Origin: Planctomycetota bacterium | Lineage (GTDB): Bacteria > Planctomycetota > B15-G4 > SIAN01 | Assembly (NCBI GenBank): GCA_031409275.1 | Contig: JANNXA010000043.1 | Location: 1 to 64,000 of the forward strand | DNA length: 64,000 nucleotides | Direction: 5' to 3' | Shown here: in pieces, positions 9,292 through 25,686 of the stretch | How positions within the stretch are numbered: the stretch's first letter is position 1 | How the letters are laid out: each line of letters opens with the position of its first letter | Program-made: the position numbers and the translations under genes | The notes under the pieces: model-generated | Told to the model about the DNA's origin: nothing | Database searches by the model: none | Seen by the model: only the letters and a program-made list of their open reading frames with translations

Positions 9292-10383
9292 ATGCAGGTG
9301 ATTCCGAGGCGGGGCGTGTTGCGGATCGCGGCGGCGGTCGTGTTGCTGGTACGGCCGGCGGCAGCGCAGCACACGCTGCTGCTCGATCCGACGGCGGCGA
9401 CGGTCGAGAGGGTCGCGGCAAGCAAGGCGGCGGGCGCGGCCGAGATTGCGCTGCGACTCGAACTGATCACGCCACCGAAGGTCGACGATCCGAAGCGACC
9501 GCTCCACCGTTTCCACGTGGTGCTCGAGGATGGCCCGCTCGAGCTCGCCATCGAACGCGAGTGCTTCCTCGCCGCCGGCCGCGTGCGCGGCGCGGGGCTG
9601 AAACTCGCTTACTGGCTCGAGGTCGCGCGCCAGCCGGCGCTCGCCGTCGCTCGACCGCAGTACGTCCTGCCGCGTGCAACGTCCTGGATCGCGCTGACCA
9701 GCGTCGAAGGCGGCCGACTCCACGCCGCGTGGATCGAGGCGCTCTTGCGCGAGCCGCTGCCGCAAGCGTCCACCTGGTTCCTTGCCGCGTTGCAGGAAGG
9801 GCCCGGTGCCTGCGGTTGCGAGGAGCCTGCTTGTCAGAGCGCGCCGTTCGATGGCACGCGCGCGGACGGATTGCGTCCCGCGACACCGAACGCCGCAGCG
9901 CTGCTGGTCGAGCAGGTGCGATCGACGCTCGCCGAGAAGCAAACCAGCGGGCGCTCGGCCCATGCGGCGGCCGTCGCGAACACGACGTCGCCGATCGTGG
10001 TGCCCGTCTGGCTGCCCGGCTGCGAGTCGGGGCACGACGCGCCGCTCGTAAAGCATCGCTGCCTCCGTTCGTGCGCGCTGCAGGTTCGCCCGCTCGCGAG
10101 CGGCCACGAGGCGCTGGCGCTGCTGCTGCTCGCACCGCTGCGCTCGAAGTCGGGTGCGACGGGCGATGCAACGGCATGGATCGACGCGACGCTGCGACAG
10201 TTCTCGTCTCGCCTCGAGACACCCGCGCTGACGCCCGACCATCTCGTGGCGGTGATCGCGGCGCTGGAACTCGATGGCCGCGCGCGCGATGGCGTCGCGG
10301 TGGCCGCAGAAGTCGCGGCGGCGAAGGCGGCGGGGGCGCGCGGCGTGGTGGTCGCGGAAGCGCAGCTGCCGCAGGGGCGCTGA
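9292..10383 (+). CDS. Hypothetical secreted protein with Cys-rich segments
   Basis: Signal peptide ending AAAQ; CGCEEPAC and GCESGH...CLRSC; stop directly abuts the convergent cytochrome stop (tgatca). Confidence 0.55.
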   Translation: MQVIPRRGVLRIAAAVVLLVRPAAAQHTLLLDPTAATVERVAASKAAGAAEIALRLELITPPKVDDPKRPLHRFHVVLEDGPLELAIERECFLAAGRVRGAGLKLAYWLEVARQPALAVARPQYVLPRATSWIALTSVEGGRLHAAWIEALLREPLPQASTWFLAALQEGPGACGCEEPACQSAPFDGTRADGLRPATPNAAALLVEQVRSTLAEKQTSGRSAHAAAVANTTSPIVVPVWLPGCESGHDAPLVKHRCLRSCALQVRPLASGHEALALLLLAPLRSKSGATGDATAWIDATLRQFSSRLETPALTPDHLVAVIAALELDGRARDGVAVAAEVAAAKAAGARGVVVAEAQLPQGR

Positions 10384-11544
10384 TCAACGCGGCCGCGCGT
10401 CGTCCCGCATTCCTTCACGTGAGCCGTGATAGGCGTGGCATTCGAGGCAGTCGCCGCGAGCGGCGCCGCCCGATTGCTGCGCCTGGTGGCACTTCGCGCA
10501 GTCGGCGAGCCGTGGAAGGTGCAGGTCGCTGGTGGCGTGGCTCGACCTCACGTCGTGGTGGCACTCGTCGCAGCGGGTCGCGCGATGGGCTTGGTGGTCG
10601 AAGCGGGCGCCAGCGAACCAGCTTGCCGGCACCCCCGGCGGCGCGATCGCTTGAAGGCCGCCGTCCTCACCGCGCTCGACCGCGTGGCATTCGGCACAGC
10701 GGGTGGCGGCGAGGAAGTGCTCCGCTTGCGCGACGGTCGTGGTGAGCCACGCCTGCACGGTGGGGTCGGCGAGCGCGGCGCGGCGGCTGCGCTCGACCAT
10801 CTGCGGTGTGTCGCGCAACACGCGCGCGGAGGCGAGGCGGGTGAGCTCCTCGCGCAGCGCGGTCGGCTGCAAGCCGTGGGTCACCGTGGCGCCAGCGAGC
10901 TCGCCGTTCAGCTCGAGCGAGTGGCAACCGGCGCAGTGGTGCTCGTAGACGATCGGCGCCATGCGCCTGCCGGTGGTGTCGAGCGAATGGCAGTCGGCGC
11001 ACTCGAGGCGGCGCGCGAGCCCGGGCAGGTCGAGCGCGAGGTGGAGCGCGTGGTCGAGGCGGATCGTGCCGGGATCGGGGCGTGCGTCGCGATGGAGCGC
11101 GAACTCGGGATGGTCGGTGAAGCTCGCGACCGCGGCCACGCCGCTTCGCTCCGTCGCATGGCATTGCGTGCAGTGCGCGTCGGCGGTGCGCGAGTTCGAG
11201 CCGTGTTCGCGATGGCAGGAGGCGCACGCGGGCGCCGCCACTGCTTCGCCGCGAACGTGGGGCGTGCCCGCGTGGCAGCGGCTGCAAGCGCGGTCATCGA
11301 CGCCGGTGCCGGGCGCGTGGCACTCCTCGCAGCTCGCTTCGAACGAGGCATGCGCCGGCGCAAGCGGTCCGGGCGACCACGGCTGCTGGCGGCCCGCGAC
11401 CACAAGACCTGACAGCGCGATCAGCGGTGCCACGAACGCGCCTACGGCGAGGCGCGCACGCCACTGCCGCAGCGGATGGGGCCGCCGGTAGTAGTCGAGC
11501 TCGATGCGGCTGGCGAGCGTCTTGGTGGTGCGGGTGCGGGCCAT
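10384..11544 (-). CDS. Membrane-anchored decaheme c-type cytochrome (cytochrome c3/c7-like)
   Basis: Ten CxxCH: CEECH, CSRCH, CASCH, CTQCH, CADCH, CAGCH, CAECH, CDECH, CAKCH, CLECH; N-terminal hydrophobic helix. Confidence 0.92.
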   Translation of the reverse strand: MARTRTTKTLASRIELDYYRRPHPLRQWRARLAVGAFVAPLIALSGLVVAGRQQPWSPGPLAPAHASFEASCEECHAPGTGVDDRACSRCHAGTPHVRGEAVAAPACASCHREHGSNSRTADAHCTQCHATERSGVAAVASFTDHPEFALHRDARPDPGTIRLDHALHLALDLPGLARRLECADCHSLDTTGRRMAPIVYEHHCAGCHSLELNGELAGATVTHGLQPTALREELTRLASARVLRDTPQMVERSRRAALADPTVQAWLTTTVAQAEHFLAATRCAECHAVERGEDGGLQAIAPPGVPASWFAGARFDHQAHRATRCDECHHDVRSSHATSDLHLPRLADCAKCHQAQQSGGAARGDCLECHAYHGSREGMRDDARPR

Positions 11545-11553
11545 GGATCGCTC

Positions 11554-12384
11554 TCAGAGGTAGCGCAGCGCGCCGAGCGCGTGGAAGAGCGTCGCCGCGA
11601 GCGTCGCCCATGACACCGGCACATGGAACAGCAGCCAGCCGTGCAGCCAGTGGTGGAGTCGGCGCTGCTGTTCGAGCCCGCAACGTTCGTCGCAGAGATC
11701 GAAGAGATCATCGACCGCTTCATGCATCGGCGCCGGCAGCAGTCGCTTCAGGTGCGCTCGCTGCATCGGCGCGGTCGAGCGCTGCTCGAAGAGGCTTGCG
11801 CGCGGGCGTGCGGCAGCGAGGAAGGGCCGCACTTGCGACTCGTAGAAATCGCGCAACGGCGCGTGCTCCGGATGGGGCGCCTTCGCGCCGCACCACTTCT
11901 CGATCAGCGCGCTTGCCTCCTCGCGCAGCAGCTGCGCCACGTGGTCGATCTGCTCGTAGATCGTCTCGCGCACGACCTGCTCGGTCATGACGCGCGGCAG
12001 GAAATGTTGCAGCGCGACGCCGACCACTCCGCTCGCCCAGCTAGCGAGGAAGAGCGCCATCAGCCAGCTCGTGAGCGAGCCGCCGCAAGCGAAGTCGCCG
12101 TGGAAGAGCACCAGCGGCAACGACAGCGCGCCAAGCCAGACGTGCCCCGACAGCCAGCGCGACGTCTTGCCGAGCCGCCACGCCTTCCGCCGCTTGCGCA
12201 GCGTGAGCGCCGCGCCGGTCACCATGCAAGCCAGCGCCGCGATCCCGAAGGCGAGCCCCCACGCGCTGCCGCCCGTCAGCGGCGCGAGCGGATCGCGTCG
12301 CACGAGCCACCAGCAGCCGGTGGCGACCAGCAGCGTGGCGCTGCAGCCGACGATCCAGGGACGCTGGCGCGCGTCGATGCGCAT
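11554..12384 (-). CDS. Integral membrane protein, probable di-heme cytochrome b / ferric-reductase-like
   Basis: About 5 hydrophobic helices; two intramembrane His pairs 14 residues apart (HVWLGALSLPLVLFH; HVPVSWATLAATLFH). Confidence 0.7.
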   Translation of the reverse strand: MRIDARQRPWIVGCSATLLVATGCWWLVRRDPLAPLTGGSAWGLAFGIAALACMVTGAALTLRKRRKAWRLGKTSRWLSGHVWLGALSLPLVLFHGDFACGGSLTSWLMALFLASWASGVVGVALQHFLPRVMTEQVVRETIYEQIDHVAQLLREEASALIEKWCGAKAPHPEHAPLRDFYESQVRPFLAAARPRASLFEQRSTAPMQRAHLKRLLPAPMHEAVDDLFDLCDERCGLEQQRRLHHWLHGWLLFHVPVSWATLAATLFHALGALRYL

Positions 12385-13958
12385 CAGCGAGCCCCCTTCG
12401 GCGGCGTCGTGACGCCTTGCAACGGGAAGAGGCGCTGCTCGAAGAACTTCAGCGGATCGACGCGATGGGCGGCGTCATGCGGGCAGCCCGCGACGCAGGC
12501 CGGCTCGCCCTGGTCCATGCAGAGGTCGCAGGTGGTCGCTTTCGTCTTCGGCTTGGCGGCGCGTTCCGGGGCGCCCGCGCCCGCGCCCGCTTCCGCGAGC
12601 TCGACCATCGAGATGTTCCCGTACGGGCATTGCTTGGCGCACAGGCTGCAGCCGATGCACCAATCCTCGATCACGATCTCGAGCGACTCCTTGCGGCGGA
12701 TGGCGCCGACCGGGCAGCCGACCATGCAGAGCGGGTCGCGGCAGGTGCGGCAGGTGGTCGCGACGAGGTACTGGTCGAAGCGCAGTCCGTCGCGGATGAG
12801 GCGCGTGACGCCTTCGTGGGCGCTGGCGCAGCCATGCACGCACTCGTCGCAGCGCGTGCAGCGGTCGAGGTCGAGCAGCAGGAGGTTCTGCGCCTGCATG
12901 AGCCCCTGCGAGAGGAACTGCTCGAGGTCGACCGAAGCGCCGCGCTGCGCGAGCGTCGCGTTCTGCGCCGCCCGCTCGGTCGCCAGCGTCGCCAACCGCG
13001 CGCGCACGTCCGGGAAGCGCGCGACCATCTCGGCGAAGTCGCTGCTCTCGATCTTCACGACTTCGACGTGATCGAGCGCCATGCAGGTTGCGTTGCGCGG
13101 CACGGAAGAGAGCAACGCCATCTCGCCGAAGCAGCTGCCGCGCGGCAGGTAGGAGAGCACCATGTCGCCGCCGGGCCAGTGCTTCGACACCTTGACGAAG
13201 CCGATGCGCACCAGGAAGAAGCCGTCCGCGACGTCGCCTTCCTTGAAGATCACCTGGCCCGGATCGAAGCGCAGCAGCTTCACCCGCGGCCGCAACGCGT
13301 CGACGAACTCGCGCGAGAGCCCCTGCAGCAGCGGTACGCCGGCGAGGTGCTGATCGAGGGCGCGCGCGCGGTACTTCTCCTCGAGCGCGGCGCGGAACGT
13401 GGTGTTCCTCTGCAGCTCGACCAGGATGTTGCGCAGCATCTCGACCACGACGACGCGCGTCTTGGCGCGGACCGTCGCGGAGCGAGGGTAGAAGCTCAAG
13501 CACGCCATCTCGCCGAAGAGGTCGCCGGCGCCGAGTTGTGCGATCGGCCGCTGCGAGTCGAGGTCGACGGGTGCGTCGATCGGGATGTAGCGGCGCGGCG
13601 TCGCCGTCTCCGCTTCGGCCGGCGCGCGCGTCAACACCTGCTTCAGGCGACGAAAGAAGCCGCCGCTCGCCTGCTTCTGCACGCGGCCCAGCGTCGCCTG
13701 CAGATAGACCTCGGCGCTGCCTTCGAGGATCACGAACGCCGTCGAGCCGAACTCCCCTTCGCGGCACAGCAGCTCGCCCGGTTCGAAGACGCGGCGCACG
13801 ATGGCGCCGGGGTTCTTCTCGAGCTTGCTGCGCGAGAAGCCTTGGAAGAGCGGCAGGGCGAGCACGGCGTCGGGCGACAGCGGCTCGCCGTAGTCGAGAC
13901 GCTGCTCGACGGGCGCGAGCGGCGTGGGCGGCGCAGCGGTTACAGGTTCGGCGCTCAT
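12384..13958 (-). CDS. Tandem cyclic-nucleotide-binding domains fused to a DmsB/NrfC-like 4x[4Fe-4S] ferredoxin
   Basis: Phosphate-binding cassettes FGEMACLSFYPRSA and FGEMALLSSVPRNA; 16 Cys in CTRCDECVHGC, CRTCRDPLCMVGCP, CIGCSLCAKQCP and CDLC-x7-CVAGCP; no signal peptide. Confidence 0.9.
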   Translation of the reverse strand: MSAEPVTAAPPTPLAPVEQRLDYGEPLSPDAVLALPLFQGFSRSKLEKNPGAIVRRVFEPGELLCREGEFGSTAFVILEGSAEVYLQATLGRVQKQASGGFFRRLKQVLTRAPAEAETATPRRYIPIDAPVDLDSQRPIAQLGAGDLFGEMACLSFYPRSATVRAKTRVVVVEMLRNILVELQRNTTFRAALEEKYRARALDQHLAGVPLLQGLSREFVDALRPRVKLLRFDPGQVIFKEGDVADGFFLVRIGFVKVSKHWPGGDMVLSYLPRGSCFGEMALLSSVPRNATCMALDHVEVVKIESSDFAEMVARFPDVRARLATLATERAAQNATLAQRGASVDLEQFLSQGLMQAQNLLLLDLDRCTRCDECVHGCASAHEGVTRLIRDGLRFDQYLVATTCRTCRDPLCMVGCPVGAIRRKESLEIVIEDWCIGCSLCAKQCPYGNISMVELAEAGAGAGAPERAAKPKTKATTCDLCMDQGEPACVAGCPHDAAHRVDPLKFFEQRLFPLQGVTTPPKGAR

Positions 13959-16900
13959 CGCGACTCCTCGTCGGCGACGGTGTAGAGCGCGCCCGCGCGC
14001 AGGTAGAGGCGGCGCATCTCGTCCAGCGTGAAGGGGCGCGCGCCGCGTCGATTGAAGACGGAGAGCTGGTTCCCGCTTTCGTCGACGGCGCGGTCGCGAT
14101 CGAGCCCCTCCGAGATGGCGAGCGCGGGCCCGTCCGTCGCGAACGTCGCGATCAGGCGCGGCGTCGGTTGCTGCGTGAAGCCGGCGAAGCCGGGCGTCTC
14201 GCCGGCCGTTACCAACTCGATCACGCGCAAGCCGTTCACGCCGTCAGCGACGTAGCCAAAGACGCTGTTGTTGGTCATCGCGACCTTGACGTCGTTCACG
14301 TCGGTGAGCGCGCCGTCGGCGTCGAACGTCGCGAGCAGGAGTGGCGCGCGCGGTCGCTCGACGTCGACGATGGCGATGCCGTGGCGGCCGGCGGCGACGT
14401 AGGCGTGGGTGCGCGAGAGGTAGACGTTGCGCGCGTCGGCGATGGCGACGGTCGCGTCATCGATCGGCCGTGGCGCGTCGGGATCGGTGAGGTCGAGGAG
14501 GCGCAGCCCGCGCGCGTCGCTGACGAAGGCGTAGCGAAACTGCACTTGCACGGCAGTCGGCGCCTCGACGTGCGGCGCGCCGATGACGGTGACGAGACGC
14601 GGTTGGAGTGGATCGGCGAGGTCGACGATCGCGAGGCCGCCGCGGCAGCCGACGTAGGCGCGCGTGCCGGCGACCGTGACGCTGGTGGCGCCGCTCAACG
14701 CTTGCCCAGGGTTGAAGGTGACGCTGCGCTCGAGGAAGTTGTTCTGCGGGTTGCCATCGAGCAGCGTCGCCGCGTTGACGAGGATCAATCCCTCCTCGAA
14801 GTCGGCGACGTAGAGGAAGGCGTAGAGCAGGTGGATCGCCGCTTCCTCGTTCTCGGCGCGCCGCGTGCGGCCGGGATCGAGCGCCGTGGTCGCGGGCGAG
14901 GCGACGCCGCGCGCGTCGCGGGTCGCCACGTGAAGACGCTGCCCGAGCGGCGAGACGGGCGCGGAGACGCTCTTCTCGGAGAGCCCTTTGTGGTCGACGT
15001 TGGCGACGTCGAAGACGCGCAAGCCACCGCTGCCGCACGCCGCGTAGACGTACTCGCCGCGCAGCTGCAGCGAGCGAATCGTCGGCGCCGAGCCGGGCAG
15101 CAGCCGCTCGCCCACGTCGTCGGCCGGATGGTGGACCGAGAGGGTCAGCTTCGAGTCGCCGGCGCGGTGCGCGGCGAACGCTTCGGGATAGGCGATTCGA
15201 TGGAGGTTGCTGCCGACCACGGCCTGCGGCTCATCGCGCTCGGTGACGACGACCGCCTCGAAGCCGGCGGCGCCGGTCGCGACGTAGCAGTAGCGGCCGA
15301 TGAAGCTCGTTTGGTTGGTGCCGAGCAGCAGCAGCTGCGCCATCCACGCATTGTTGTCGTCGGCGCCGCTCACGTGGCAGTCGCTGCACTTCTTGGTGGC
15401 GCCAGCGCCGCGGACGGTGTGGGGGACGTAGGTGCAGAACGCCTGGCCGGAGAAGCCCTCCGCTGACACGGTCTGCTGCTGCGCGTAGACCCACTCGCGA
15501 TCCTCGTTCTGCGAGGAGACCAGCACCGCGCAGGTCGAGCGCGCCGGCGAGATGCGGCCGCCCGCCACCGCGCCATCGACGGCCAGCATGTAGCAGTCGT
15601 CGCGCAGCGTCTGGAAGTTGTAGGAGGTCCAGTTGCGCGCGATCTGCCCGTCGGCGTGGAGATTCGGCGTGCGCTGGTTCGCTTCCATCGGCAGGTGGCA
15701 GCCGAAGCACGACGTCGTCCAGCTCGTGTGACAGGCGGCGCAGGTCATGCGCGAGTCGGCGTGGGCGCGATCGCCGGCAGCGTTGCGCATCGTCTTCGCG
15801 CGGGCCGACTTCGCGTTGTAATGCGCGGCGCCCGGAGTCACCGTGTCCTGCACCTGCACCACTTCCCAGGTCAGCTTCGGCGTGACGACGCTGCGCTGAT
15901 AGAGGCGCTCGCCCTGCCAGAAGAAGCGCCGCTCGCCAAACGGAGTGGTCAGCGCTTCGAGGTCGTGGCCCGGTTCGCCGCCATTCGTCGGCACGCCCGC
16001 GGCGTTCGCTGCCGGACCGCTGGTGCGCAAGTTCGCCTTGGCGTCGACGCTGCCGTGGCAATCGTCGCAGTCGATCTCGATGGCGCCGCGCACCTCGTTG
16101 TGCAGCCGACCGGTGCCGTGGCTGTCCTGCTCGAAGTGGCAGTCGACGCAGTGCATCCCCTTCTCGAGGTGGATGTCCATCAAGTGGACCGCGCGCGCGA
16201 ACTTGTCGGGCGCGTCGTCCGGGATCACGGCGCCGGCGCCATCGAGCAGCTCGCCATGCCGGTTGCGCTGATAGACGTTGCGGAAGAGCCAGCCGTGGCC
16301 ATGGAAGTCGGCGAACTGCGTCTGCTCCAGCTTCGCGTTGAACTCCGGCGTGCCCGTCTTCGCGAGGAATTGCGGATCGCTCCAGAGGCCGCGCAACGCG
16401 GCGCCTTCGGGGTTCTTCGCGCGGATCGCCGCCTTCTCTTCGGCGGTCAGCTGCTTGCTCTGCGCCGGATAGAGGTGCTCTCCGTCGGTTTCGTTGTCCC
16501 ACCAGAGCGTGCCGTAGTAGCTGTTGGTGACCGTCGTGCCGGGATGCATGTGGCAGACGACGCATTGGCTCGATGGGATCGCGCGCGTGAAGCGGTGCTT
16601 CAGCGGATGGCCCGGCTCGTCGTGCGGGATCGTCGGATCGGCGGTGACGCTGGTGCCGCCGTTGCCGTGCGCTGCGATCGCGCCGGAGTGGCGCGGATCG
16701 CGGTCGTTGGCGTAGAGGACGTGGCACGCGCTGCAACCGCTGGCGCGGTAGTCGCCGGGATGGTCGTTCGTCCCGAATTGGTTCAACGTCGGATCGAGCA
16801 GTCGCGTCTTCTGCAAGCCGAGGAAGACTGGATCGGTGCGAGTCTGCGTCCCGTAGCCGCGGTTGCTGAGCTTCGCTTCGGGATCGCCAGGTGGCTCGAA

Positions 16901-17722
16901 GGGGTTGGGCAGCCCGATCTCCGGCTTCCTGCGCCCGCCGCGCTCGAAGACGCGCAGCACGTTGCCCGGCTGCGTGATCTCCCATCGCGCCAGCGGTTGC
17001 AGCGACGGCAACCATCCGCGCGCGCGTTGCTCTTCGTCGGTGGGTGCCGGACGCGCGACGAGCTGCGCCGCCTCGCCCGACTGGTGAACCGCCTCGCCGA
17101 AGCGCGCGTCCTTCCACGGCACGGCGCCGTTGTTGTAGAGCGCCGCGCCCCACAGCATCGCGCCGTGCGCCATCATCCCGCCGCGCACGCGTTGCACGAG
17201 GTCGCCGTGGCAACCCGCCGTGCCGCAGCTCTGCGGCGCCGCGCGCAGGTCGCCGGGATTGACGAAGCGGATCCAGTCGAGCGACTCGTGCAGCGAACCG
17301 GTCGCGAGGCGTTCCGGATTCGCAGAGGACAGCACGCCGCCGCGCTGCCAGAGTTCAGGGCGGCCTGGCTGCGGATGAGCCGCTTCCTTCGTCGCCGCCG
17401 TCGCGTCACCGCCGTGGCAGTCGACACATCCGAGATGAAGAGCGCCGCTCGCGTGCATGTCGAGGTCGTCGACGAAGGCGGCGGCATCGGTCGTTTCGAC
17501 GTAGCCCGAGTGGCAGGCGACACAGCCGCTCGACTTCGCGAGCGCGGCCGAGGGGTCCTGGTCGAGCAGGGAGCGCGGCGTCGAGGTGGAGCGCCCGAGA
17601 TCCGTGGTCGCCTCCGCGGAGCCGTCGCGTTCGTGCGCGCCCGTGCAGGCGTAGGCCAGCAGCGCCAGCGCCGCCGCGATGAATGCGGCGCCGCGGGCAC
17701 GCCGATGCGTCCCGAGCTTCAC
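13955..17722 (-). CDS. Large multiheme c-type cytochrome lipoprotein with C-terminal LVIVD beta-propeller
   Basis: GTG start after GGAG; MKLGTHRR...LALLAYAC lipobox; 9 CxxCH plus one CX4CH (CGTAGCH); repeats YVAT/YAAC/YVAD...GLRVFDV/GLAIVDL/GIAIVDV. Confidence 0.88.
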   Translation of the reverse strand: MKLGTHRRARGAAFIAAALALLAYACTGAHERDGSAEATTDLGRSTSTPRSLLDQDPSAALAKSSGCVACHSGYVETTDAAAFVDDLDMHASGALHLGCVDCHGGDATAATKEAAHPQPGRPELWQRGGVLSSANPERLATGSLHESLDWIRFVNPGDLRAAPQSCGTAGCHGDLVQRVRGGMMAHGAMLWGAALYNNGAVPWKDARFGEAVHQSGEAAQLVARPAPTDEEQRARGWLPSLQPLARWEITQPGNVLRVFERGGRRKPEIGLPNPFEPPGDPEAKLSNRGYGTQTRTDPVFLGLQKTRLLDPTLNQFGTNDHPGDYRASGCSACHVLYANDRDPRHSGAIAAHGNGGTSVTADPTIPHDEPGHPLKHRFTRAIPSSQCVVCHMHPGTTVTNSYYGTLWWDNETDGEHLYPAQSKQLTAEEKAAIRAKNPEGAALRGLWSDPQFLAKTGTPEFNAKLEQTQFADFHGHGWLFRNVYQRNRHGELLDGAGAVIPDDAPDKFARAVHLMDIHLEKGMHCVDCHFEQDSHGTGRLHNEVRGAIEIDCDDCHGSVDAKANLRTSGPAANAAGVPTNGGEPGHDLEALTTPFGERRFFWQGERLYQRSVVTPKLTWEVVQVQDTVTPGAAHYNAKSARAKTMRNAAGDRAHADSRMTCAACHTSWTTSCFGCHLPMEANQRTPNLHADGQIARNWTSYNFQTLRDDCYMLAVDGAVAGGRISPARSTCAVLVSSQNEDREWVYAQQQTVSAEGFSGQAFCTYVPHTVRGAGATKKCSDCHVSGADDNNAWMAQLLLLGTNQTSFIGRYCYVATGAAGFEAVVVTERDEPQAVVGSNLHRIAYPEAFAAHRAGDSKLTLSVHHPADDVGERLLPGSAPTIRSLQLRGEYVYAACGSGGLRVFDVANVDHKGLSEKSVSAPVSPLGQRLHVATRDARGVASPATTALDPGRTRRAENEEAAIHLLYAFLYVADFEEGLILVNAATLLDGNPQNNFLERSVTFNPGQALSGATSVTVAGTRAYVGCRGGLAIVDLADPLQPRLVTVIGAPHVEAPTAVQVQFRYAFVSDARGLRLLDLTDPDAPRPIDDATVAIADARNVYLSRTHAYVAAGRHGIAIVDVERPRAPLLLATFDADGALTDVNDVKVAMTNNSVFGYVADGVNGLRVIELVTAGETPGFAGFTQQPTPRLIATFATDGPALAISEGLDRDRAVDESGNQLSVFNRRGARPFTLDEMRRLYLRAGALYTVADEESR

Positions 17723-17847
17723 TACTCCCTGCGACACGATCGTGGGGCTCCCCGGGCGCGCAGCGCGCCACGAGGTCAGCGATCGGCGGCCGGGAAGCCG
17801 CGGCTTGAGAAGTTCTTTCCGCTCCGACCGGCCGTCGCGCTGCCGTC

Positions 17848-19254
17848 CTACGCGACGATCCCCTTCACCACTTCTCCGTGCACATCGGTGAGCCGGAAGT
17901 CGCGTCCCTGGTGGCGGTAGGTGAGCCTGGTGTGGTCGAAGCCGAGCTGCTGGAGCAGCGTGGCTTGCAGGTCGTGGACGTGGACCGGGTCCTGGACGGC
18001 GTGGTAGGCGAAGTCGTCGCTGGCGCCGTGGACGTGGCCGGCGCGGAAGCCACCGCCCGCCATCCACATCGAGAAGCAGCTCCCGAGGTGGTCGCGTCCG
18101 TGGGCGTCGCGACGGTTGACGTCGCCTTGCACGAAGACGGTGCGGCCGAACTCGCCACCCCACAGGACGATCGTGTCTTCGAGCAGGCCGCGTTGCGCGA
18201 GGTCCTGCACCAGCGCGGCGGAGGGCTGATCGGTGTCGCGGCACTGCACTTCGAGCTGCGTCGCGAGGTTCTGGTGCTGGTCCCAGCCGGCATGCATGAG
18301 CTGGACGAAACGCACTCCGCGCTCGAGCAGCCGGCGCGCGAGCAGGCAGTTGCGCGCGAAGCTGCCCTGCCGCTGCACGTCGGGGCCGTAGAGATCGAGC
18401 ACGCTCTGCGGCTCGCCGCGCAGATCGAGCAGCTCGGGCACGCTCGCCTGCATCCGGAACGCCAGTTCGTACTGGGTGATGCGCGTGTCGATCTCGGGAT
18501 CGCCGAACTCCGCGAAGTGCTTGGCGTTCAGCGCGGCCAGATCATCGAGCGTTCCGCGCTTCAGCTCGCGCGGAATGCCCGGCGGATCGCCGAGGTAGAG
18601 GACCGGCTCGCCTTCGGCGCGGAAGCGGACGCCTTGGTGTCGGCTCGGCAGGAAGCCCGAGCCCCAGTAGTGGTCGTAGAAGAGCTGCCCGCAGGTCTTG
18701 TCGGCGTCGGACGAAGTCATCACCACGAACGCCGGCAGATCGCTCGAAAGGCTGCCGAGCCCATAGACCGTCCATGCGCCGAAGCTCGGTCGTCCTGGAA
18801 TCTGGCTGCCGGTCATCCACAGGGTGACGCCGGGCGCGTGGTTCACCGCCTCGGTGTGGAGCGAGCGCACGAGGCAGAGCTCGTCGGCGATGGAACCGAT
18901 GTGGGGCAGCAGCGTCGAGAGCTCCATGCCGCACTTGCCGTAGCGCTGGAACGGTCGGATCGCCGGCAGGATCGGATAGCGGCCCTGGCCCGACGTCATC
19001 GTCGAGAGACGCGCGCCGGAAAGGATCGACGCGGGCAGTTCGCTTCCACGCAGTGCTTCGAGGCCGGGCTTGGGATCGAAGAGATCGACGTGGGAAGGCG
19101 CGCCACCTTGCCACAGCACCACCACGCGTTTCGCCTTCGGCGCGAGTTGGGGCGCCGCCTGCGCGAGGCCATCGCGGCCGAGCAGGCCGTGCAGCGCCGC
19201 GAGCCCAAGGCCCGCGCCGCTCTGCTGCAGGAACGCACGGCGCGTCACTCGCAT
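17848..19254 (-). CDS. DUF1501 domain protein with Tat signal
   Basis: MRVTRRAFL Tat motif; GAPSHVDLFDPKP, GRPSFGAW, WDQH, GEFGRT and FRLTDVHGEVV motifs. Confidence 0.9.
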   Translation of the reverse strand: MRVTRRAFLQQSGAGLGLAALHGLLGRDGLAQAAPQLAPKAKRVVVLWQGGAPSHVDLFDPKPGLEALRGSELPASILSGARLSTMTSGQGRYPILPAIRPFQRYGKCGMELSTLLPHIGSIADELCLVRSLHTEAVNHAPGVTLWMTGSQIPGRPSFGAWTVYGLGSLSSDLPAFVVMTSSDADKTCGQLFYDHYWGSGFLPSRHQGVRFRAEGEPVLYLGDPPGIPRELKRGTLDDLAALNAKHFAEFGDPEIDTRITQYELAFRMQASVPELLDLRGEPQSVLDLYGPDVQRQGSFARNCLLARRLLERGVRFVQLMHAGWDQHQNLATQLEVQCRDTDQPSAALVQDLAQRGLLEDTIVLWGGEFGRTVFVQGDVNRRDAHGRDHLGSCFSMWMAGGGFRAGHVHGASDDFAYHAVQDPVHVHDLQATLLQQLGFDHTRLTYRHQGRDFRLTDVHGEVVKGIVA

Positions 19255-22166
19255 GTCATCGCCTCGTCGAGGTTCAGGATCGAGAGGCACGCGATGGCGA
19301 GCGCGGCGTGGTCGACGACATCGAGCGCCGCGTCGCGCGGGCTCGCGCCGACCGACAACAGCTGCAGGGCGGCGCTGGCTCCCGCGCCGCGATCGGCGGT
19401 GAAGTGGTCGCGCGCGCGTTCGACGGTCCGGCGCAGGAGCGCCAGCTCGTCGCGATCGGGCGCGCGCGCGCAGACGCGGCGGAACGCGCTCGCGAGCTGC
19501 GCGTCGAGCCCTTGCTCGCGTTGCAATGCCCATTGCGCCAGCGCGCGCGCCGCTTCGATCCAGGTCGGGTCGTTCTGCATCGTCAGCGCATGGAGTGGCG
19601 TCGACGTGACCGAGGGTCGCACCTTGCAGGTCTGGCGCGCCGAGGCGTCGAAGAGGTTCCCCGGCGCCACCGTGCGTCGCCAGAAGGTGTAGAGGCTGCG
19701 TCGCCACAGGTCGGGCCCGCTCGACAGCGGATAGGCGAAGTCGCGCTCCTTCGTGATCGAGAGGCCATCCCAGATCCCTGCCGGCTGATAGGGGTAGACC
19801 GGCGCGCCACCGACGTTGGGCACCAGAAGGTCGCTGGCCGCGAGCGCCACGTCGCGCAGCACCATCGAGCTCAGCCGCTGCCGCGGCCCGCGCGCGAGCA
19901 GTCGGTTCTCCGGATCGCGCTCGCGCAGCTGCGCGCCACGCTCGCCCGCGAGCCGCGAACTCTGGCGGAACGCGGCGCTGCGCACGATCGAGCGGTGCAG
20001 CGCTTTCATGCTCATCGCATGCGTCGTGCGCAGCTCCACGGCCAGCCAGTCGAGCAGCTCCGGGTGGCTTGGTGCCTCGCCCTGCAGGCCGAAGTTCTCG
20101 CTCGTCTTCACCAGCCCGGTCGCGAAGAAGTGCTGCCACGCGCGATTGACCAGCACGCGCGCGAAGAGCGGATTCGTCGGCGCGGTGAGCCATTGCGCGA
20201 GGCCGAGCCGATCGTGCGGCGCGCCCTCGGGCAGCGGCGGCAGGAAGGCGGGCGGTGCCGGCTCGACCGTCTCGAGCGGCGTCTCGTAGTTGCCGCGTGC
20301 CAGTCGGTGCGTCGCGCGCGGCTCGCCATCGGACATCACCATCACGCGCGGGAGCTGCGCCTGCAGCGTTTCGAGCGCGGTGCGCGCCGCGGACTGCTGC
20401 GCCAGCGCGGCGGCGAGTGGCGCAGGCGGCGTGAACTCGGCCAGCGCGCCGGCGGGGCTCGCGTCGAACCAGAAGCCGCCGGGTCCGCCGCCATTCACGA
20501 TCTGCATCAGCAACTCGTGGTCGCCGGTAGCGAGCGACACCTCGGCGCGCTCCTGATCGGGCGCGGCGCCGCGCATCACCCGCCGCTCGAGCAGCAGCGC
20601 TCCATCGAGCCAGACGCGCAGCGCATCGTCGCTGCCGAAGCGCAACGTCACGTTGAGCGGCGCGGTGGTGCGCAGCGTGCGACGGAAGAAGAACGCCGTG
20701 TTCTCGCCGGCGAGCGGATGGACGACGCCGTCCGCAAGGTCGGGTCGCTCGGTCCAACTCGCGACGTTTGCGACGGGGAGCGCGTCGGCTGCATCGAAGC
20801 TCGCCGCTGTCAGCGGTGCCGCCGCCTCCCAAGGCGATCGTTCCAGTCGCGCCATGGCCGCGTCGCGCTCTCTCTCGAAGTCGCGTTTCGCCGCGACCAC
20901 GGCCGGATCGGCGAGCGCCGCGGCCGCGGCTGCATCGGCTGCGAGCGCCGCCTGCTCGAGCGCGAGGCGCTGCTGGTTCTGCTCGTTCGTGCCGGCGTAG
21001 ATCCACGGATCGGCGATGCGGTACTGCCCGCTACCGCTCGGCACGCCGCTCTCCGGCACCCGGTTCCAGAAGGTGAAGAGCGAGTAGTAGTCGCGCTGCG
21101 TGAGCGGGTCGTACTTGTGGTCGTGGCACTGCGCGCAGGCGGCGGTGAGGCCGAGGAACGTCGTTGCGAAGACGTCGACGCGATCGAAGACGAGGACGTT
21201 CCTCTGCTCCTCGGCGATGGCGCCGCCCTCGCCGTTCAACAAGGCGCAACGCTGCAGGCCGCTCGCCACTTGCTGTTCGATGCGCTGCAGTGGATCGGGC
21301 GCCGGCAGCAGGTCACCTGCGATCAGCCGCGTTGCGAGCACGTCTTGCGGCAGGTCGTCGTTGAGCGCGCGCACCATCCAATCGCGCCAGACCCACTGGA
21401 AGGTGTCGCCGTCCTGCTGGTAGCCGTTGCTGTCGGCGTAGCGCGCGGCGTCGAGCCACGGCAGCACCATCCGCTCGCCGTAGTGGGGGCTCGCGAGAAG
21501 CCGGTCGACCGCGCGGTCGTAGGCATCGGGCCGGGGCCGCTCGCGCGGCTCCGCCGCCGACTCGGCGACGAACGCATCGATCTCCGCGAGGGTGGGCGGC
21601 AGTCCGGTGAGCGCGAGCGTCGCGCGCCGCAGCAGCGTGATCGGCGCCGCCTCCGCCGACGGCGCCAGCCCTTCCTGCTCGAGTCGCGCCAGCACGAAGC
21701 GATCGAGCGGCTCGCGACACCATGCCGCGTCGCGCACCTCGGGCAACGGCGCGGCGCGCGGCGCTTCCCATGCCCAATGGCCGGCCCACTTCGCGCCCTG
21801 CTCGATCCAGCGGATCAGCGTCGCCCGCTCGGCCTCGCTCAACTCCTTGCCCGAACTCGCCGGCGGCATCCGCTTGCGCGGGTTCACTTCGGTGATGCGC
21901 GCGACGAGTTCGCTGGCATCGATGTCGCCGGGCACGATCGCCACGTTCCCCGACTTCGCTGCTGCGAACGCTGCCGCGCGAACGTCGAGCCGCAGCCCCG
22001 CCTTGCGCGCCGCCTCGTCGGGCCCATGGCACTTGAAGCAGCGATCGGACAGCAGCGGCTGCACGTCGCGAGCGAAGTCGACGGGGAGGTCGGCGACACC
22101 GTTCCCGACCGCGTCGCCGCGCGGCGCGATGGAGCTGGCAACCACGATCAGCAGCGACACGACCAT
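19245..22166 (-). CDS. Planctomycete cytochrome c + DUF1549 + DUF1553 (PSD1) protein
   Basis: DFARDVQPLLSDRCFKCHG, HYGERM..WLDAARYADSNG, CAQCHDHKYDP, PSHPELLDWLA and STPLHALT. ATG 22166 chosen (alternative GTG 22184). Confidence 0.9.
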   Translation of the reverse strand: MVVSLLIVVASSIAPRGDAVGNGVADLPVDFARDVQPLLSDRCFKCHGPDEAARKAGLRLDVRAAAFAAAKSGNVAIVPGDIDASELVARITEVNPRKRMPPASSGKELSEAERATLIRWIEQGAKWAGHWAWEAPRAAPLPEVRDAAWCREPLDRFVLARLEQEGLAPSAEAAPITLLRRATLALTGLPPTLAEIDAFVAESAAEPRERPRPDAYDRAVDRLLASPHYGERMVLPWLDAARYADSNGYQQDGDTFQWVWRDWMVRALNDDLPQDVLATRLIAGDLLPAPDPLQRIEQQVASGLQRCALLNGEGGAIAEEQRNVLVFDRVDVFATTFLGLTAACAQCHDHKYDPLTQRDYYSLFTFWNRVPESGVPSGSGQYRIADPWIYAGTNEQNQQRLALEQAALAADAAAAAALADPAVVAAKRDFERERDAAMARLERSPWEAAAPLTAASFDAADALPVANVASWTERPDLADGVVHPLAGENTAFFFRRTLRTTAPLNVTLRFGSDDALRVWLDGALLLERRVMRGAAPDQERAEVSLATGDHELLMQIVNGGGPGGFWFDASPAGALAEFTPPAPLAAALAQQSAARTALETLQAQLPRVMVMSDGEPRATHRLARGNYETPLETVEPAPPAFLPPLPEGAPHDRLGLAQWLTAPTNPLFARVLVNRAWQHFFATGLVKTSENFGLQGEAPSHPELLDWLAVELRTTHAMSMKALHRSIVRSAAFRQSSRLAGERGAQLRERDPENRLLARGPRQRLSSMVLRDVALAASDLLVPNVGGAPVYPYQPAGIWDGLSITKERDFAYPLSSGPDLWRRSLYTFWRRTVAPGNLFDASARQTCKVRPSVTSTPLHALTMQNDPTWIEAARALAQWALQREQGLDAQLASAFRRVCARAPDRDELALLRRTVERARDHFTADRGAGASAALQLLSVGASPRDAALDVVDHAALAIACLSILNLDEAMTCE

Positions 22167-22218
22167 CGCGCAGAGCGTAGCCACCGACCCGGAACGGGGC
22201 GTGCCGCCGCGCGCCCCC

Positions 22219-23982
22219 TCACCAGGTCAACGTCACCCCGACGAAGCCGGCGTAGAGCGTCTGCCCGCCGCCGAAGAGGTCGCGCGCCCCTTCGCCGGGG
22301 AGGAGCCACGCGCTGCCGGCGGTCACGATCACGTTGTCGGTGAGCCACGGTCGCCACGTCGCGCCGATCGAGAGGTCGAGGCCGATGGTGGGGGCGATCT
22401 GGTCGTCGTTCAACGCCAGCTCGAGCGGAGCGGTCCGATCGAAGCGCAGCCAGCTGGCGTTCAGTTCGACCTTGAGTTCCTGCGTCAGCTTCGCGTCGAG
22501 GCCGGCGTTCACGATCAGCAGGCCGGGGTTCACGTGGTTGGCGGCGTCGTGCAGCTTCGAGGTGCGCAGGTGGGGGAGCAGCGAGGCGCGGTCGACCAGC
22601 GTGACGGGAGTTCCCGTCAGCGCGATGCCCTGCCGGTTCCAGAAGGAGAAGGGCCCGCCGACGAAGTTCACCTGATCGAAGATCGAATCGAAGCCGCGCG
22701 CGACGGAGTCGGTCGGATCGTCGTCGCCGCTCGCCCAGAAGAGCGAGCCCTTCGGCCGCAGCCAGTCGAAGTCGCGCGACAGTTCGAGCGCCGCCATCTG
22801 CGCGTTCACGCGCGTGCGCCGTCCCGCCAGCGGGTTCAGCGTGTCGCGGCCGACGACCTCGTAGAGCGCGTGGCTGACGTTCAGCCAGCCGACGTGCCCT
22901 TCGCTGGTCCAGCCCATGTAGACGGTGTCGAGTTCGTGGTCGGCCGCGCTGCCCAGTCGCGTCGGCCGCGCCGGGAAGCCGTTGTCGTCGCGGAACGCGC
23001 CGCCGCGATCCTGGTTCCAGTGCAGCGACGCCTGATGCGTCCAGCCGGGCGCGAAGCAGTCCTGCACGTACCAATTCGCCACCAGCACGCGCTGCTCGCG
23101 CAGGTCGGTGAAGTCGACCAGTCCGCTGTTGGTGTCCTTCTCGGCCAGCGCGAACCAGGCGAGGTTCCACTGGTCGCGGTTGCTGCGCCGGCTGCCGAAG
23201 AGGCGCACGCCCGGCTCGAAGTCATTGAAGATGAAGCCGCGGAAGTCGCTGAGGAACGGCTGCAACCCGGTTCGGGAGGAGATGAAGTCGTAGTGAGGCG
23301 AGGTGTCGGCGAGGTGGATCTCGACGAACGCCTCCTGCAGCGCGAAGAAGCGATCGGAGCGCGTGTCGCCTTCGCGCGGATCGATCGCGGTGGCGTTCTT
23401 CTCCTGCAGGCGCAGCTCGTTGCGCTGGAAGACGGGAGTGAGGCGCAGCTCGAAGTCGCGCGGGCGGTAGGCGGCGTCGCCGTGGAAGAGTTCGAACGAG
23501 AGCAGCAGCGTCTCGCTGGCGAAGAACTGCTCGCCGCTCCCGAAGAAGGTGTCGCTGCCGGGAGTGGCGGTCGACACGCCGCTTGGCGTCGGCAGGCGCC
23601 GCCGCTCGACGAGCGTGTCGCTGGTGGCGGTCAACGCGAGGAACCACTCCTGGCCGACGATCGGCAGGTCGCCCTTCAACACGTTGCGGCGGTAGGGATT
23701 CCACCACTGGTCGGCGACGTAGGGGTACTCCTCGTTCCCGACGTCGTAAGGCGAGCCGGCCGCGTAGCGCGCCCACTCGTCGAAGTCGATGCGCCAACGA
23801 TCGGGCAGCGGCAACACGTCCACCGTCGGCACGGGCGAGGGCGGCTGCGGCGGCTCCTGCGCGAGCGCTCGCGCGGGCGCGGGCGTGGCGAGGCCGATCG
23901 CCATGAAGGCGAGCGGCAGCGTGACTCGTCGCGCGATTCGCCCTGACACTCCCAAGTTGCTCCGCGTCGCACGGCGCCTCAT
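22219..23982 (-). CDS. Probable outer-membrane beta-barrel protein
   Basis: Signal peptide ending ALAQE; alternating amphipathic strands; C-terminal ...YAGFVGVTLTW Bam-type motif. Start uncertain. Confidence 0.75.
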   Translation of the reverse strand: MRRRATRSNLGVSGRIARRVTLPLAFMAIGLATPAPARALAQEPPQPPSPVPTVDVLPLPDRWRIDFDEWARYAAGSPYDVGNEEYPYVADQWWNPYRRNVLKGDLPIVGQEWFLALTATSDTLVERRRLPTPSGVSTATPGSDTFFGSGEQFFASETLLLSFELFHGDAAYRPRDFELRLTPVFQRNELRLQEKNATAIDPREGDTRSDRFFALQEAFVEIHLADTSPHYDFISSRTGLQPFLSDFRGFIFNDFEPGVRLFGSRRSNRDQWNLAWFALAEKDTNSGLVDFTDLREQRVLVANWYVQDCFAPGWTHQASLHWNQDRGGAFRDDNGFPARPTRLGSAADHELDTVYMGWTSEGHVGWLNVSHALYEVVGRDTLNPLAGRRTRVNAQMAALELSRDFDWLRPKGSLFWASGDDDPTDSVARGFDSIFDQVNFVGGPFSFWNRQGIALTGTPVTLVDRASLLPHLRTSKLHDAANHVNPGLLIVNAGLDAKLTQELKVELNASWLRFDRTAPLELALNDDQIAPTIGLDLSIGATWRPWLTDNVIVTAGSAWLLPGEGARDLFGGGQTLYAGFVGVTLTW

Positions 23983-24054
23983 CCCGCGGGCGCCTCCGTG
24001 CCGACGAGAGGGGATCGGCAGAAAAGGGTTCCCATCCGCAGCGGAGATCCAGAG

Positions 24055-25686
24055 GTGAGTGAGCCGCTCGCAGCAACCGCTCGCACCGCGGCAGCGTCGG
24101 CGTTGCTGGCCGCGCTGTCGCTGCTGATTCCGTCGAGCTGCAGCGGCGGCAGCGATTACGGCGCCGCGGGCGGCAGCGTCTCGACGCCGCTGGTGCCGCT
24201 GACGCAAGCCGAGGTCGAGCAGGTCGTCGCGCAGGCGGTGACGCAAGCGGTGGCGCGCGGCGTCGTCGTGACGGTGGCCGTCAGCGATCGCGAAGGCGAC
24301 GTGCTGGCGCTGTTCCGCATGAGCGGCTCGACCGCCGACGAGGACGACGCCGTCTCCGCTGCCGGCACCGCCGCCTACTTCGCCAGCAATCAGAACGCGT
24401 TCACCACGCGCACCGCCGAGTTCATCATCCAGGACCATTTCCCGCCGACGACGAAGCAGACGCCGGGCGGGCCGCTCTACGGCGTGCAATTCAGCAATCG
24501 AGTCGCCACCGACGAGCCGGGCGGCCTGCTGCTCACCACCGATGGCCAGCCGATCGGCCGCGATGCGCTCGCCAACGCGGTTGGCGAAGGGATCACCGGT
24601 TTGACCGTCGCGGGCGGCGGCGGCGGCGTTCCGCTCTACAAGTCGGGCGCAGCGGCGGGCGGCATCGGCGTGGTCGGGGATGGCGTTGCGCCCGATGAGC
24701 TCGAGCGGATCGCAGTCGCTGGCAGCGCTGGCTTCGCGGCGCCCGCTTCGATTCGCGGCTCGCAGATCGTGATCGACGGGATCCGGCTGCCCTTCACCGA
24801 GACGACACCGGTCGAAGATGGTTCGACGCTCGCCTTCGCCTCGTTGCCCGGTGCGGTCGAGTCAGGCTTGGCGCCGCGCGCGAGCCCGATGCCCGCCCTC
24901 TTCCCGAGCGCGACGTTCGGTGGCGCGACGTGCGAGCTGCGCCTGCCGATCATCGACAGCCCGCTCGGCGATCCGGTGCAGCTCGAAGCGGCGGAAGTCA
25001 GCGCGATCCTCGCCGCCGCGGTCGCCCGTTCGCAGCGCACGCGCGCCGCGATCCGCCGTCCGCTCGGCACCGCGATGCAGTGCTTCATCGTCGTCGTCGA
25101 TCGCGCCGGCAACGTGGTTGGCGCGTTGCGGACGCCCGATGCGACGCTCTTCAGCTTCGACGTCGCGATCCAGAAGGCGCGCAGCGCGGCCTTCTTCAGC
25201 GACGACGACCACGGCTACACGACCCGCGCGCTCGGCTTCCTTGCGCAGGGGCTCTTCCCGCCGGGAATCGACGGCACGAGCGCCGGTGCGCTGAACGGAT
25301 TGCAGGCAGCGCTCACGGCGTCGGGCGAGACGGCGGCCGGCGCGCTCGCGAACGGCCTGACCGTCTTCCCAGGCGGCGTGCCGCTCTACGAAGCGGGAGT
25401 AAGAGTCGGGGCGATCGGAGTCTCCGGCGACGGGGTCGATCAAGACGACCGGGTCGCCGACAGCGGCGCGAATGCCGGCTTCGCCGCGACTCGTCGCGTG
25501 CGCTGCGACTTCCTGACCGAGTCCGAGGCGCTGGCGGGACTCGATGCCGCGCTGGCGCGTCTCGACGGCGTCAGTAGCGACGCGACCTTGCGCGCGCAGA
25601 TCGCGAGTTGCCGAGCGCGCCTGCAGGACGGGCTCGACGGACTGCGCCTGCCGTGGGTGAAGCTCCCTCGCAACGGCGATCGCTGA
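24055..25686 (+). CDS. Lipoprotein with two GlcG/HbpS (heme-binding, Haem_degrading) domains
   Basis: GTG after GGAG; LLIPSSC lipobox-like; VAVSDREG...GGVPLYKSG..GGIGVVGD and VVDRAGN...QKARSA...PGGVPLY..VGAIGVSGD. Confidence 0.82.
   Translation: MSEPLAATARTAAASALLAALSLLIPSSCSGGSDYGAAGGSVSTPLVPLTQAEVEQVVAQAVTQAVARGVVVTVAVSDREGDVLALFRMSGSTADEDDAVSAAGTAAYFASNQNAFTTRTAEFIIQDHFPPTTKQTPGGPLYGVQFSNRVATDEPGGLLLTTDGQPIGRDALANAVGEGITGLTVAGGGGGVPLYKSGAAAGGIGVVGDGVAPDELERIAVAGSAGFAAPASIRGSQIVIDGIRLPFTETTPVEDGSTLAFASLPGAVESGLAPRASPMPALFPSATFGGATCELRLPIIDSPLGDPVQLEAAEVSAILAAAVARSQRTRAAIRRPLGTAMQCFIVVVDRAGNVVGALRTPDATLFSFDVAIQKARSAAFFSDDDHGYTTRALGFLAQGLFPPGIDGTSAGALNGLQAALTASGETAAGALANGLTVFPGGVPLYEAGVRVGAIGVSGDGVDQDDRVADSGANAGFAATRRVRCDFLTESEALAGLDAALARLDGVSSDATLRAQIASCRARLQDGLDGLRLPWVKLPRNGDR

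Follow-up and report, generated by a model that had tools for sequence, protein, structure and literature searches.

A planctomycete gene cluster of the PCC4/ptd kind with a predicted AlgE-like barrel and a decahaem-propeller cytochrome: likely electron transfer from cytoplasm to outer membrane, possibly under cAMP control

Among the porin-cytochrome clusters, PCC4 comprises a porin, cytochromes with 4, 5 and 10 haems and an inner-membrane protein (IMP) with five helices, an SGXXG motif and two WX3HX13H motifs (PMC5566968), and in its subgroup II an iron-sulphur (Fe-S) gene lies upstream of the IMP gene (He 2017, PMC5566968). These IMP motifs have been tied to di-haem proteins of the ferric-reductase type (He et al., PMC5566968), and PCC4, which was found in Fe(II) oxidisers, has been modelled with inward flow and a quinone-active IMP (PMC5566968). 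The uncharacterised ptdABCDEFG cluster encodes, among others, PtdE, an Fe-S protein with cyclic nucleoside monophosphate (cNMP) domains, PtdF, a ferric-reductase-like protein, and PtdG, a decahaem cytochrome (Elbon et al., bioRxiv 10.1101/2023.11.21.568154). As far as these published accounts go, PCC4 subgroup II and ptdABCDEFG read as the same composition. Here, we describe a related cluster of six genes at positions 10,384 to 25,686 of a 64,000-nucleotide stretch (the window) from a Planctomycetota bacterium, which likely serves to pass electrons from cytoplasm to outer membrane and may be under the control of cyclic AMP (cAMP).

The resemblance of the window locus to PCC4 and ptd lies in its inner half, where the cNMP/Fe-S gene, the IMP gene directly downstream of it and a decahaem gene after the IMP follow one another in the same order. 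In contrast, the locus is devoid of the pentahaem PtdA, the PtdB-type porin, the FAD/NAD(P) oxidoreductase PtdC and the tetrahaem PtdD, and harbors instead a predicted AlgE-like barrel, a decahaem cytochrome fused to an LVIVD propeller and a tandem GlcG protein. With MtrCAB, MtoAB and PioAB it shares an outer-membrane barrel and two decahaem cytochromes; however, MtoB and PioB are given 24-32 strands (PMC5566968), against 18 and an AlgE fold in the model of the window barrel, and electrons enter MtrCAB through CymA, whereas an Fe-S/cytochrome b entry is predicted here. In addition, no window protein matched the MtrA/MtrC families above the cut-off. The Mtr-type conduit implied by an earlier note on this DNA is thus not supported by the barrel, which is predicted to be AlgE/OprD-like. 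The extHIJKLMNOPQS cluster of Geobacter, linked to selenite and tellurite uptake and reduction and including the porin ExtI, likewise combines a small porin, conserved multihaem cytochromes, a cytochrome b and an Fe-S protein (PMC5877670), but the window has no Rieske, rhodanese or ExtKL genes, and cNMP domains and a propeller are not described for ext in the available text of that report (PMC5877670). By analogy, ext may be the nearest functional parallel for a small porin coupled to solute reduction. AlgE and the OprD/Occ channels share the 18-strand fold predicted for the window barrel, but at 12-14% identity; there are no alginate genes, and the window barrel family is always partnered with a cytochrome. 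A preprint reports the porin-multihaem clusters EET1-EET4 in Acidobacteriota, transcribed in peat (bioRxiv 10.64898/2026.05.27.727921); unlike the present account, its main text gives no propeller, cyclic-nucleotide domains or strand number, the comparison being one of descriptions and not of sequences. Taken together, these comparisons place the window system, at the sequence level, as a variant of the PCC4/ptd kind, neither a strict member of it nor an Mtr-type conduit. Its inner half has already been published, as PCC4 and as ptdEFG, but not characterised, and the novelty that had been implied for the whole system does not extend to that half; no paper describing the barrel-LVIVD-GlcG module was found in the literature.

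The cluster is a real, widespread system. A GTDB scan with the LVIVD alignment returned at least 591 related stretches, and the barrel-LVIVD pair is thus very common in soil and freshwater bacteria. The best 80 loci, mostly from Acidobacteriota, were compared, with neighbours counted in 10-kb flanks, some of which were ended by contig ends. The barrel gene lies beside the LVIVD gene in 73 of these 80, and they also contain the GlcG gene (46 loci), the cNMP gene (33, or 31 at E<1e-10), the decahaem gene (25) and the IMP gene (23); the corresponding numbers for the 36 loci with full flanks are 36 for the barrel, 28, 22, 15 and 15. Fifty-seven LVIVD loci gave no stand-alone IMP match. Three that have fusions in the locus and four that lie on very short contigs were omitted, and the genomes of the other 50 were searched: in 48 the IMP was matched at E<=1e-8, and in 23 of the 48 below 1e-70, the 1e-8 cut-off being unspecific, as 15 of the 41 genomes of a relatives set pass it too, mostly by partial matches. 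In that 41-genome set, barrel and LVIVD orthologues are found in the same five genomes, with no discordant case. Of 251 planctomycete genomes, the IMP (E<=1e-20) was detected in 36 and the barrel in 37; the two coincide in 20 genomes, compared with 5.3 expected, with the reservation that kin are not independent. The source genome (~5.6 Mb), whose contig C43 carries the window, belongs to this group by the Planctomycetes labels of the nearest homologues of the cluster proteins; two of four genomes of its genus show no orthologue. Homologues of all six genes also occur within 15 kb on pMSHV of Sphingobium herbicidovorans MH, a cultured carrier of the complete set that makes the system testable.

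For the inner module, 21 regions were examined, namely those surrounding 20 of the other 35 matches to the IMP in planctomycetes, and one from a relative. Eight of these show the ptd composition, PtdA and PtdB being recognised there by composition and not by published accessions, and the window trio is homologous to PtdE, PtdF and PtdG in all eight: the cNMP protein matches their PtdE at E 1e-43 to 1e-74, and the anchored decahaem matches their decahaems at E 2e-14 to 3e-4. Five other IMP-centred regions (L112, L114, L115, L118 and L119; L-numbers are labels of the loci compared in this analysis) have, inside one 20-kb stretch, both this barrel and the LVIVD gene. A single inner module is thus combined with different outer modules. 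The IMP itself shows all the features given for PCC4, namely five hydropathy peaks corresponding to five transmembrane (TM) helices, SGVVG at residue 118, and WX3HX13H at 77-95 and 250-268; its two HX13H bis-His pairs are carried on TM3 and TM5, as a ferric-reductase-like (FRD) domain requires, and H81, H95, H254 and H268 are invariant in 23 of 23 aligned sequences, bearing out the His-paired membrane protein of the earlier note. No Pfam match (including PF01794) was obtained for the IMP, and a search of its profile against PDB sequences gave nothing meaningful. With the N-terminus inside, one His pair would lie in each leaflet, forming a transmembrane two-haem wire. In the cNMP protein, two cNMP domains are accompanied by 16 invariant Cys, consistent with four [4Fe-4S] clusters (PF00027 at E 2e-37 plus Fer4 families in Pfam), and the decahaem cytochrome has 10 CXXCH motifs and an N-terminal hydrophobic helix (residues 32-50), both as had been proposed. 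PtdE-PtdF fusions occur in L066, L068 and L088, which supports a physical PtdE-PtdF complex.

The PtdE of the window is a short form without the NuoG-like or TrxB extension, and the relatives differ in this respect: 109 of the 120 closest PtdE homologues exceed 600 amino acids (aa), with Fer2_4 and PF10588 domains in a NuoG-like N-terminus. Three unrelated flavoprotein types are found at the same position in relatives. A NuoEF fusion (Pfam) occurs in 15 of the 80 LVIVD loci, beside a PtdE with the NuoG-like N-terminus; a TrxB-like domain is fused to PtdE (B6S01_RS18455) in S. herbicidovorans and stands beside or is fused to a PtdG-type cytochrome in three loci; and the ptd-type loci have an FNR-like PtdC, as read from their sequences. 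A Sth-like flavoprotein is present in 17 of the 80 loci and a tetrahaem cytochrome in 32. The window locus has neither the NAD(P)H flavoprotein nor the tetrahaem cytochrome that relatives add (the latter usually), and the earlier description of a complete wire was therefore too strong; the accompanying observations that the parts are predicted to span the cytoplasm to the outer membrane and that the locus has no catalytic molybdopterin or hydrogenase subunit were upheld. NuoF and TrxB are likewise absent from the flanks of 17 of the 31 cNMP loci, in some because the flank ends there, and a short PtdE without adjacent NuoF or TrxB recurs in L033, L037, L038, L039 and L077, each with a Sth-like flavoprotein in the locus. 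Elsewhere in the source genome there are one NuoF, two Sth-like genes, three TrxB-ferredoxin flavoproteins and one unlinked PtdD/tetrahaem homologue, as well as one cytochrome c assembly match and ~27 frames with four or more CXXCH. The tetrahaem homologue (L101, contig C34:168280-169455; 32%, E 1e-49) stands alone beside a transposase-like frame and is possibly a displaced PtdD.

Both cNMP domains carry an FGE...R cassette (FGEMACLSFYPRSAT and FGEMALLSSVPRNAT). In domains of the CRP/PKA type, F-G-E...R forms the phosphate-binding cassette, and 119 of the 120 closest PtdE homologues retain the binding Arg in each domain; two aligned PtdE-PtdF fusions retain only the first cassette. A class III cyclase is encoded within ~10 kb in 6 of the 21 IMP-centred planctomycete regions and in 4 of the 80 LVIVD loci, these being raw counts. 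In Sphingobium, genes for Crp, a CHASE2 cyclase and two calcineurin-like phosphoesterases lie at the flanks of the cluster, and the single adenylate cyclase of the source genome is on another contig. As the binding motifs are intact and adenylate cyclases lie near relatives, cAMP control of electron entry appears plausible. FHA domains and kinases are alternative signalling neighbours of the relatives. No relevant literature linking CHASE2, multihaem cytochromes, Sphingobium and cAMP was found. The surroundings of the Sphingobium cluster (L104:1-35447; NZ_CP020539) also encode a CHAT protease, two ShlB/FhaC transporters and a 2092-aa protein without a Pfam match.

In the outer module, the putative barrel was modelled by AlphaFold2 as an 18-strand barrel, with a predicted local distance difference test (pLDDT) score of 87.8 and the strands counted from DSSP. 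The best fold matches are AlgE and the OprD/Occ solute channels, AlgE being first in Foldseek (E 4.7e-15; Z 29.7, root-mean-square deviation 2.9, 360 residues aligned); MtrB is not among the listed matches, which by itself does not exclude kinship with MtrB. Loop 381-450 (70 residues) is conserved above the barrel overall (0.74 vs 0.63), and the periplasmic turns are likewise conserved. The equivalent loop constricts the pore in AlgE/OprD, and the conservation, read on the model, suggests a selective pore with a periplasmic partner. The barrel family is large, with 7721 of 8000 scored candidates and 2101 representatives at 50% identity. Orthology with PtdB was rejected, as comparison with seven PtdB-type porins gave E>=0.19 and an hhalign probability of 0.4%; no strand count for the Geobacter OmbB was found in the literature.

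The LVIVD cytochrome has nine CXXCH motifs and one CX4CH, in agreement with the ~10 haems of the earlier note, and 63 of 70 aligned sequences carry 10 haem motifs. At haem site 3 (model residues 109-115), the motif is CX4CH in 41 of the 70, CX2CH in 11 and unparsed in 18, with Cys and His invariant. The divergent GlcG gene does encode two HbpS-like domains. The assignment of these two proteins as lipoproteins in the note is weak: candidate lipobox motifs exist in the window products (LAYAC and IPSSC), but a crude lipobox regular expression matched only 2 of 73 LVIVD and 6 of 42 GlcG homologues, and family-wide lipoprotein anchoring was rejected. The LVIVD model (pLDDT 82.3) shows a seven-bladed propeller at ~752-1153, a haem region of ~750 residues and a conserved low-confidence loop at 192-239. 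Its best NCBIfam match, the Geobacter ExtM, is weak (E 1e-18, 67 bits vs a cut-off of 800), and a match to an octahaem nitrite reductase is limited to a 49-residue dihaem stretch (E 3e-4). Orthology with PtdA was rejected on a match of only 37 columns of haem motifs, and orthology with ExtM or MtrA/C for want of any such family match above cut-off. A search of the ESM Atlas gave generic multihaem clusters only, and the literature on LVIVD multihaem cytochromes yielded only an unrelated Tenderia protein. Median identity to the homologues in L019-L097 (mostly Acidobacteriota) is 53.7% for this protein vs 31.9% for PtdG. Among solved structures, the GlcG protein comes nearest to the GlcG/EfgA entry 6bws (E 2.6e-15), the HbpS-type entries following at E 1e-5 to 7e-4; "haem-binding" is a family label only.

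We assign a probability of roughly 45% to the reading that this locus sends electrons outward to a reductase in the periplasm that is docked beneath a solute channel. The electron input would be cytoplasmic NAD(P)H or ferredoxin. A flavoprotein, fused or adjacent in relatives and here presumably supplied from elsewhere in the genome, would oxidise NAD(P)H, and the four [4Fe-4S] clusters of PtdE, placed by motif, would pass electrons to PtdF through the contact that the gene fusions suggest. The two b-haems, with H81/H254 towards the cytoplasmic and H95/H268 towards the periplasmic side in the predicted topology, would carry them across the membrane to the anchored PtdG, which would take them into the periplasm. 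The least certain steps are the last: the LVIVD decahaem may dock at the periplasmic face of the AlgE-like barrel as the terminal reductase, a soluble acceptor entering through the predicted narrow channel would be reduced by this ten-haem propeller protein, and the tandem GlcG protein may bind a small ligand. cAMP on the two cNMP domains, whose pockets appear intact by sequence, may alter electron entry. A more general proposal, that such loci are modular export machines in which cAMP on the Fe-S wire subunit switches NAD(P)H-derived flow into interchangeable outer modules, and in which the AlgE-like channel and the decahaem-propeller protein form an undescribed class of outer-membrane terminal reductase, is doubtful as a whole. 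If true, cAMP acting allosterically on the electron-transfer chain itself, and not via a transcription factor, would add a new regulatory logic to bacterial redox metabolism; and if the outer module is a solute-channel reductase, such clusters in metagenomes would mislead as evidence of extracellular electron transfer (EET).

Several observations weigh against this export reading. The locus itself has no flavoprotein and no tetrahaem PtdD, homologues being found only on other contigs. The catalytic multihaem enzymes NrfA, ONR and HAO are marked by a Lys-ligated (CXXCK) or cross-linked haem and a family fold; the LVIVD protein has no CXXCK, all ten motifs end in His and no catalytic haem was identified, and its 11 conserved non-motif His would be enough for all-bis-His ligation. 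Among the fold matches listed for the full LVIVD model there are only propellers, which filled both lists, and 11 of 70 LVIVD sequences carry a hydrophobic helix at the C-terminus. Outer-surface cytochromes are reported to evolve fastest, and periplasmic cytochromes inside porin-cytochrome conduits are reported to be conserved as well (PMC12977616); the conservation of the LVIVD cytochrome therefore argues against surface exposure, but an enzyme and a conduit-bound periplasmic cytochrome fit it equally. In three loci and in 3 of 150 representatives, though in 0 of the 119 closest homologues, the barrel carries an N-terminal tetrahaem domain, which would suit the delivery of electrons into it. 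Furthermore, 17 of the 37 barrel-bearing planctomycete genomes have no IMP match at E<=1e-20, and Sphingopyxis pMC4 has the outer module only, within 18-kb flanks, which indicates that the two modules are separable. With regard to cAMP, one clade of 5 of the 21 aligned PtdE sequences is devoid of the binding Arg in both domains.

One rival reading, that of the earlier note, is a true trans-envelope conduit. Electrons would pass through the barrel, or beside it, across the outer membrane and reach acceptors outside the cell, for example humics or minerals. The combination of porin, multihaem cytochromes and IMP follows the logic of PCC4, barrel and LVIVD genes are adjacent and concordant as described above, tetrahaem-barrel fusions exist, and the LVIVD loop 192-239 could fold upon binding the barrel. 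The carriers are also soil and freshwater bacteria, in which EET clusters have been reported (bioRxiv 10.64898/2026.05.27.727921). However, the barrel has 18 strands and an AlgE-like fold vs the 24-32 strands of MtoB/PioB, and no fast-evolving surface cytochrome is encoded in the locus. In addition, the ~1200-aa globular haem-propeller protein is unlike MtrA, which is rod-shaped, and the cluster is carried by Sphingobium, an aerobe that to our knowledge is not known for metal respiration. We therefore consider a conduit unlikely.

A flow in the opposite direction, with a soluble or extracellular donor oxidised at the outer module and electrons passed via PtdF and PtdE to the quinone pool or NAD+, would agree with the NuoEF/NuoG modules of relatives, which work reversibly. 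It would also agree with PCC4 as drawn for Fe(II) oxidisers by He et al. (PMC5566968). However, transfer from c-haem to NAD+ would be uphill without a coupling site, none of which is evident, and most carriers are Acidobacteriota, Planctomycetota and sphingomonads, not lithotrophs, which leaves inward flow improbable. Slightly less probable again is a low-flux chain that detoxifies or senses an oxidant in signalling or envelope protection, wired to cAMP and Ser/Thr-kinase networks and not to respiration. FHA domains fused to PtdE or PtdG, the kinases, phosphatases and cyclases among the neighbours, the patchy distribution (37/251 planctomycete genomes) and the annotation of the nearest solved relative of the GlcG protein as EfgA, described as a formaldehyde sensor, speak for such a role; against it, twenty c-haems and, in relatives, a dedicated flavoprotein would be costly for sensing alone, and the signalling neighbours differ among loci.

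The features of the locus are given in Table 1. All six genes of the earlier note, five minus-strand open reading frames and a divergent plus-strand gene, were recovered with coding-type GC content at third codon positions (GC3), and the junctions of the last four co-oriented genes are exactly the 4-nt overlap, 1-nt overlap and 9-nt gap that it gave.

Table 1. Genes of the window locus and the basis of their assignment
Feature	Position	Strand	Basis
Membrane-anchored decahaem cytochrome c, PtdG-like, 386 aa (P0001)	10384..11544	-	10 CXXCH; hydrophobic helix
Five-helix inner-membrane protein (IMP), PCC4 IMP/PtdF, predicted di-haem cytochrome b (P0002)	11554..12384	-	WX3HX13H motifs, hydropathy
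Predicted cytoplasmic 2x cNMP-binding + 4x[4Fe-4S] protein, short PtdE, 524 aa (P0003)	12384..13958	-	Pfam, Cys motifs
Secreted decahaem cytochrome fused to 7-bladed LVIVD beta-propeller, 1260 aa (P0004)	13955..17737	-	Haem motifs, Pfam LVIVD, model
DUF1501 protein, inserted, probably not core	17848..19254	-	PF07394 E 1e-148
PSCyt1/DUF1549/DUF1553 (PSD1) dihaem protein, 2 CXXCH, inserted with DUF1501	19245..22184	-	Pfam
Predicted 18-strand AlgE/OprD-like outer-membrane barrel, 587 aa (P0005)	22219..23982	-	AlphaFold2, Foldseek
Secreted tandem GlcG/HbpS/EfgA-fold protein, 543 aa (P0006)	24055..25686	+	PF03928, two stretches

The co-orientation of the set was correctly given, but two genes in the same orientation, PSD1 and DUF1501, which occupy 4.4 kb and separate the barrel from the LVIVD gene, had been overlooked. 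As PSD1 is found in only 2 and DUF1501 in only 1 of the 80 related loci, they were rejected as core parts, and as the source genome has ~15 paralogous places for DUF1501 and likewise many PSD1 paralogues, the pair is probably a lineage-specific, planctomycete-expanded insert. The LVIVD open frame runs to 18244, but the stretch upstream of ~17737 is non-coding, and the gene most likely starts at 17737. In a same-genus genome (G003), the barrel orthologue has an internal TAG (L013:3663-5420) and a further 3-kb insert lies between the DUF1501 and LVIVD genes. Decay of the window copy to a remnant that has lost the flavoprotein and tetrahaem genes and gained inserts is the least probable explanation: the missing genes, the 4.4-kb insert, the state of the locus in G003 and the absence of an orthologue from two of four same-genus genomes would fit it, but none of the six frames is disrupted and every ligand is conserved, a short PtdE recurs in five other loci that each have a Sth-like flavoprotein, and the source genome retains two Sth-like proteins, three TrxB-ferredoxin flavoproteins and an unlinked PtdD homologue.

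A scan of the locus for promoters and terminators was uninformative (0 promoters; 4 terminators vs 5.7 in shuffles). On the other side of the cluster, a 363-aa gene (9292-10383, plus strand) without a Pfam or NCBIfam match abuts the decahaem stop base-to-base. In a same-genus genome, Fpg directly follows the decahaem gene, so that the 363-aa gene looks like another insert. The loci with a tetrahaem-barrel fusion (L066:7408-9762, L072 and L088), in which the N-terminal domain is c3-like, also hold PtdE-PtdF fusions and an FHA-cytochrome-ferredoxin-TrxB fusion. The source genome has a distant decahaem-propeller paralogue without this barrel family (L102, contig C14:116915-122176), and comparable weak matches were obtained in 38 of the 41 genomes of the relatives set. 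It also contains two further multihaem clusters with a PCC3-like layout (L098, C28:21559-31350, and L099, C33:133076-140090), which encode 23-haem cytochromes, probable porins, TrxB-ferredoxin flavoproteins and IMP-like segments, and at its end the C28 cluster encodes a distant paralogue, with 11 haems, of the haem region in the LVIVD protein.

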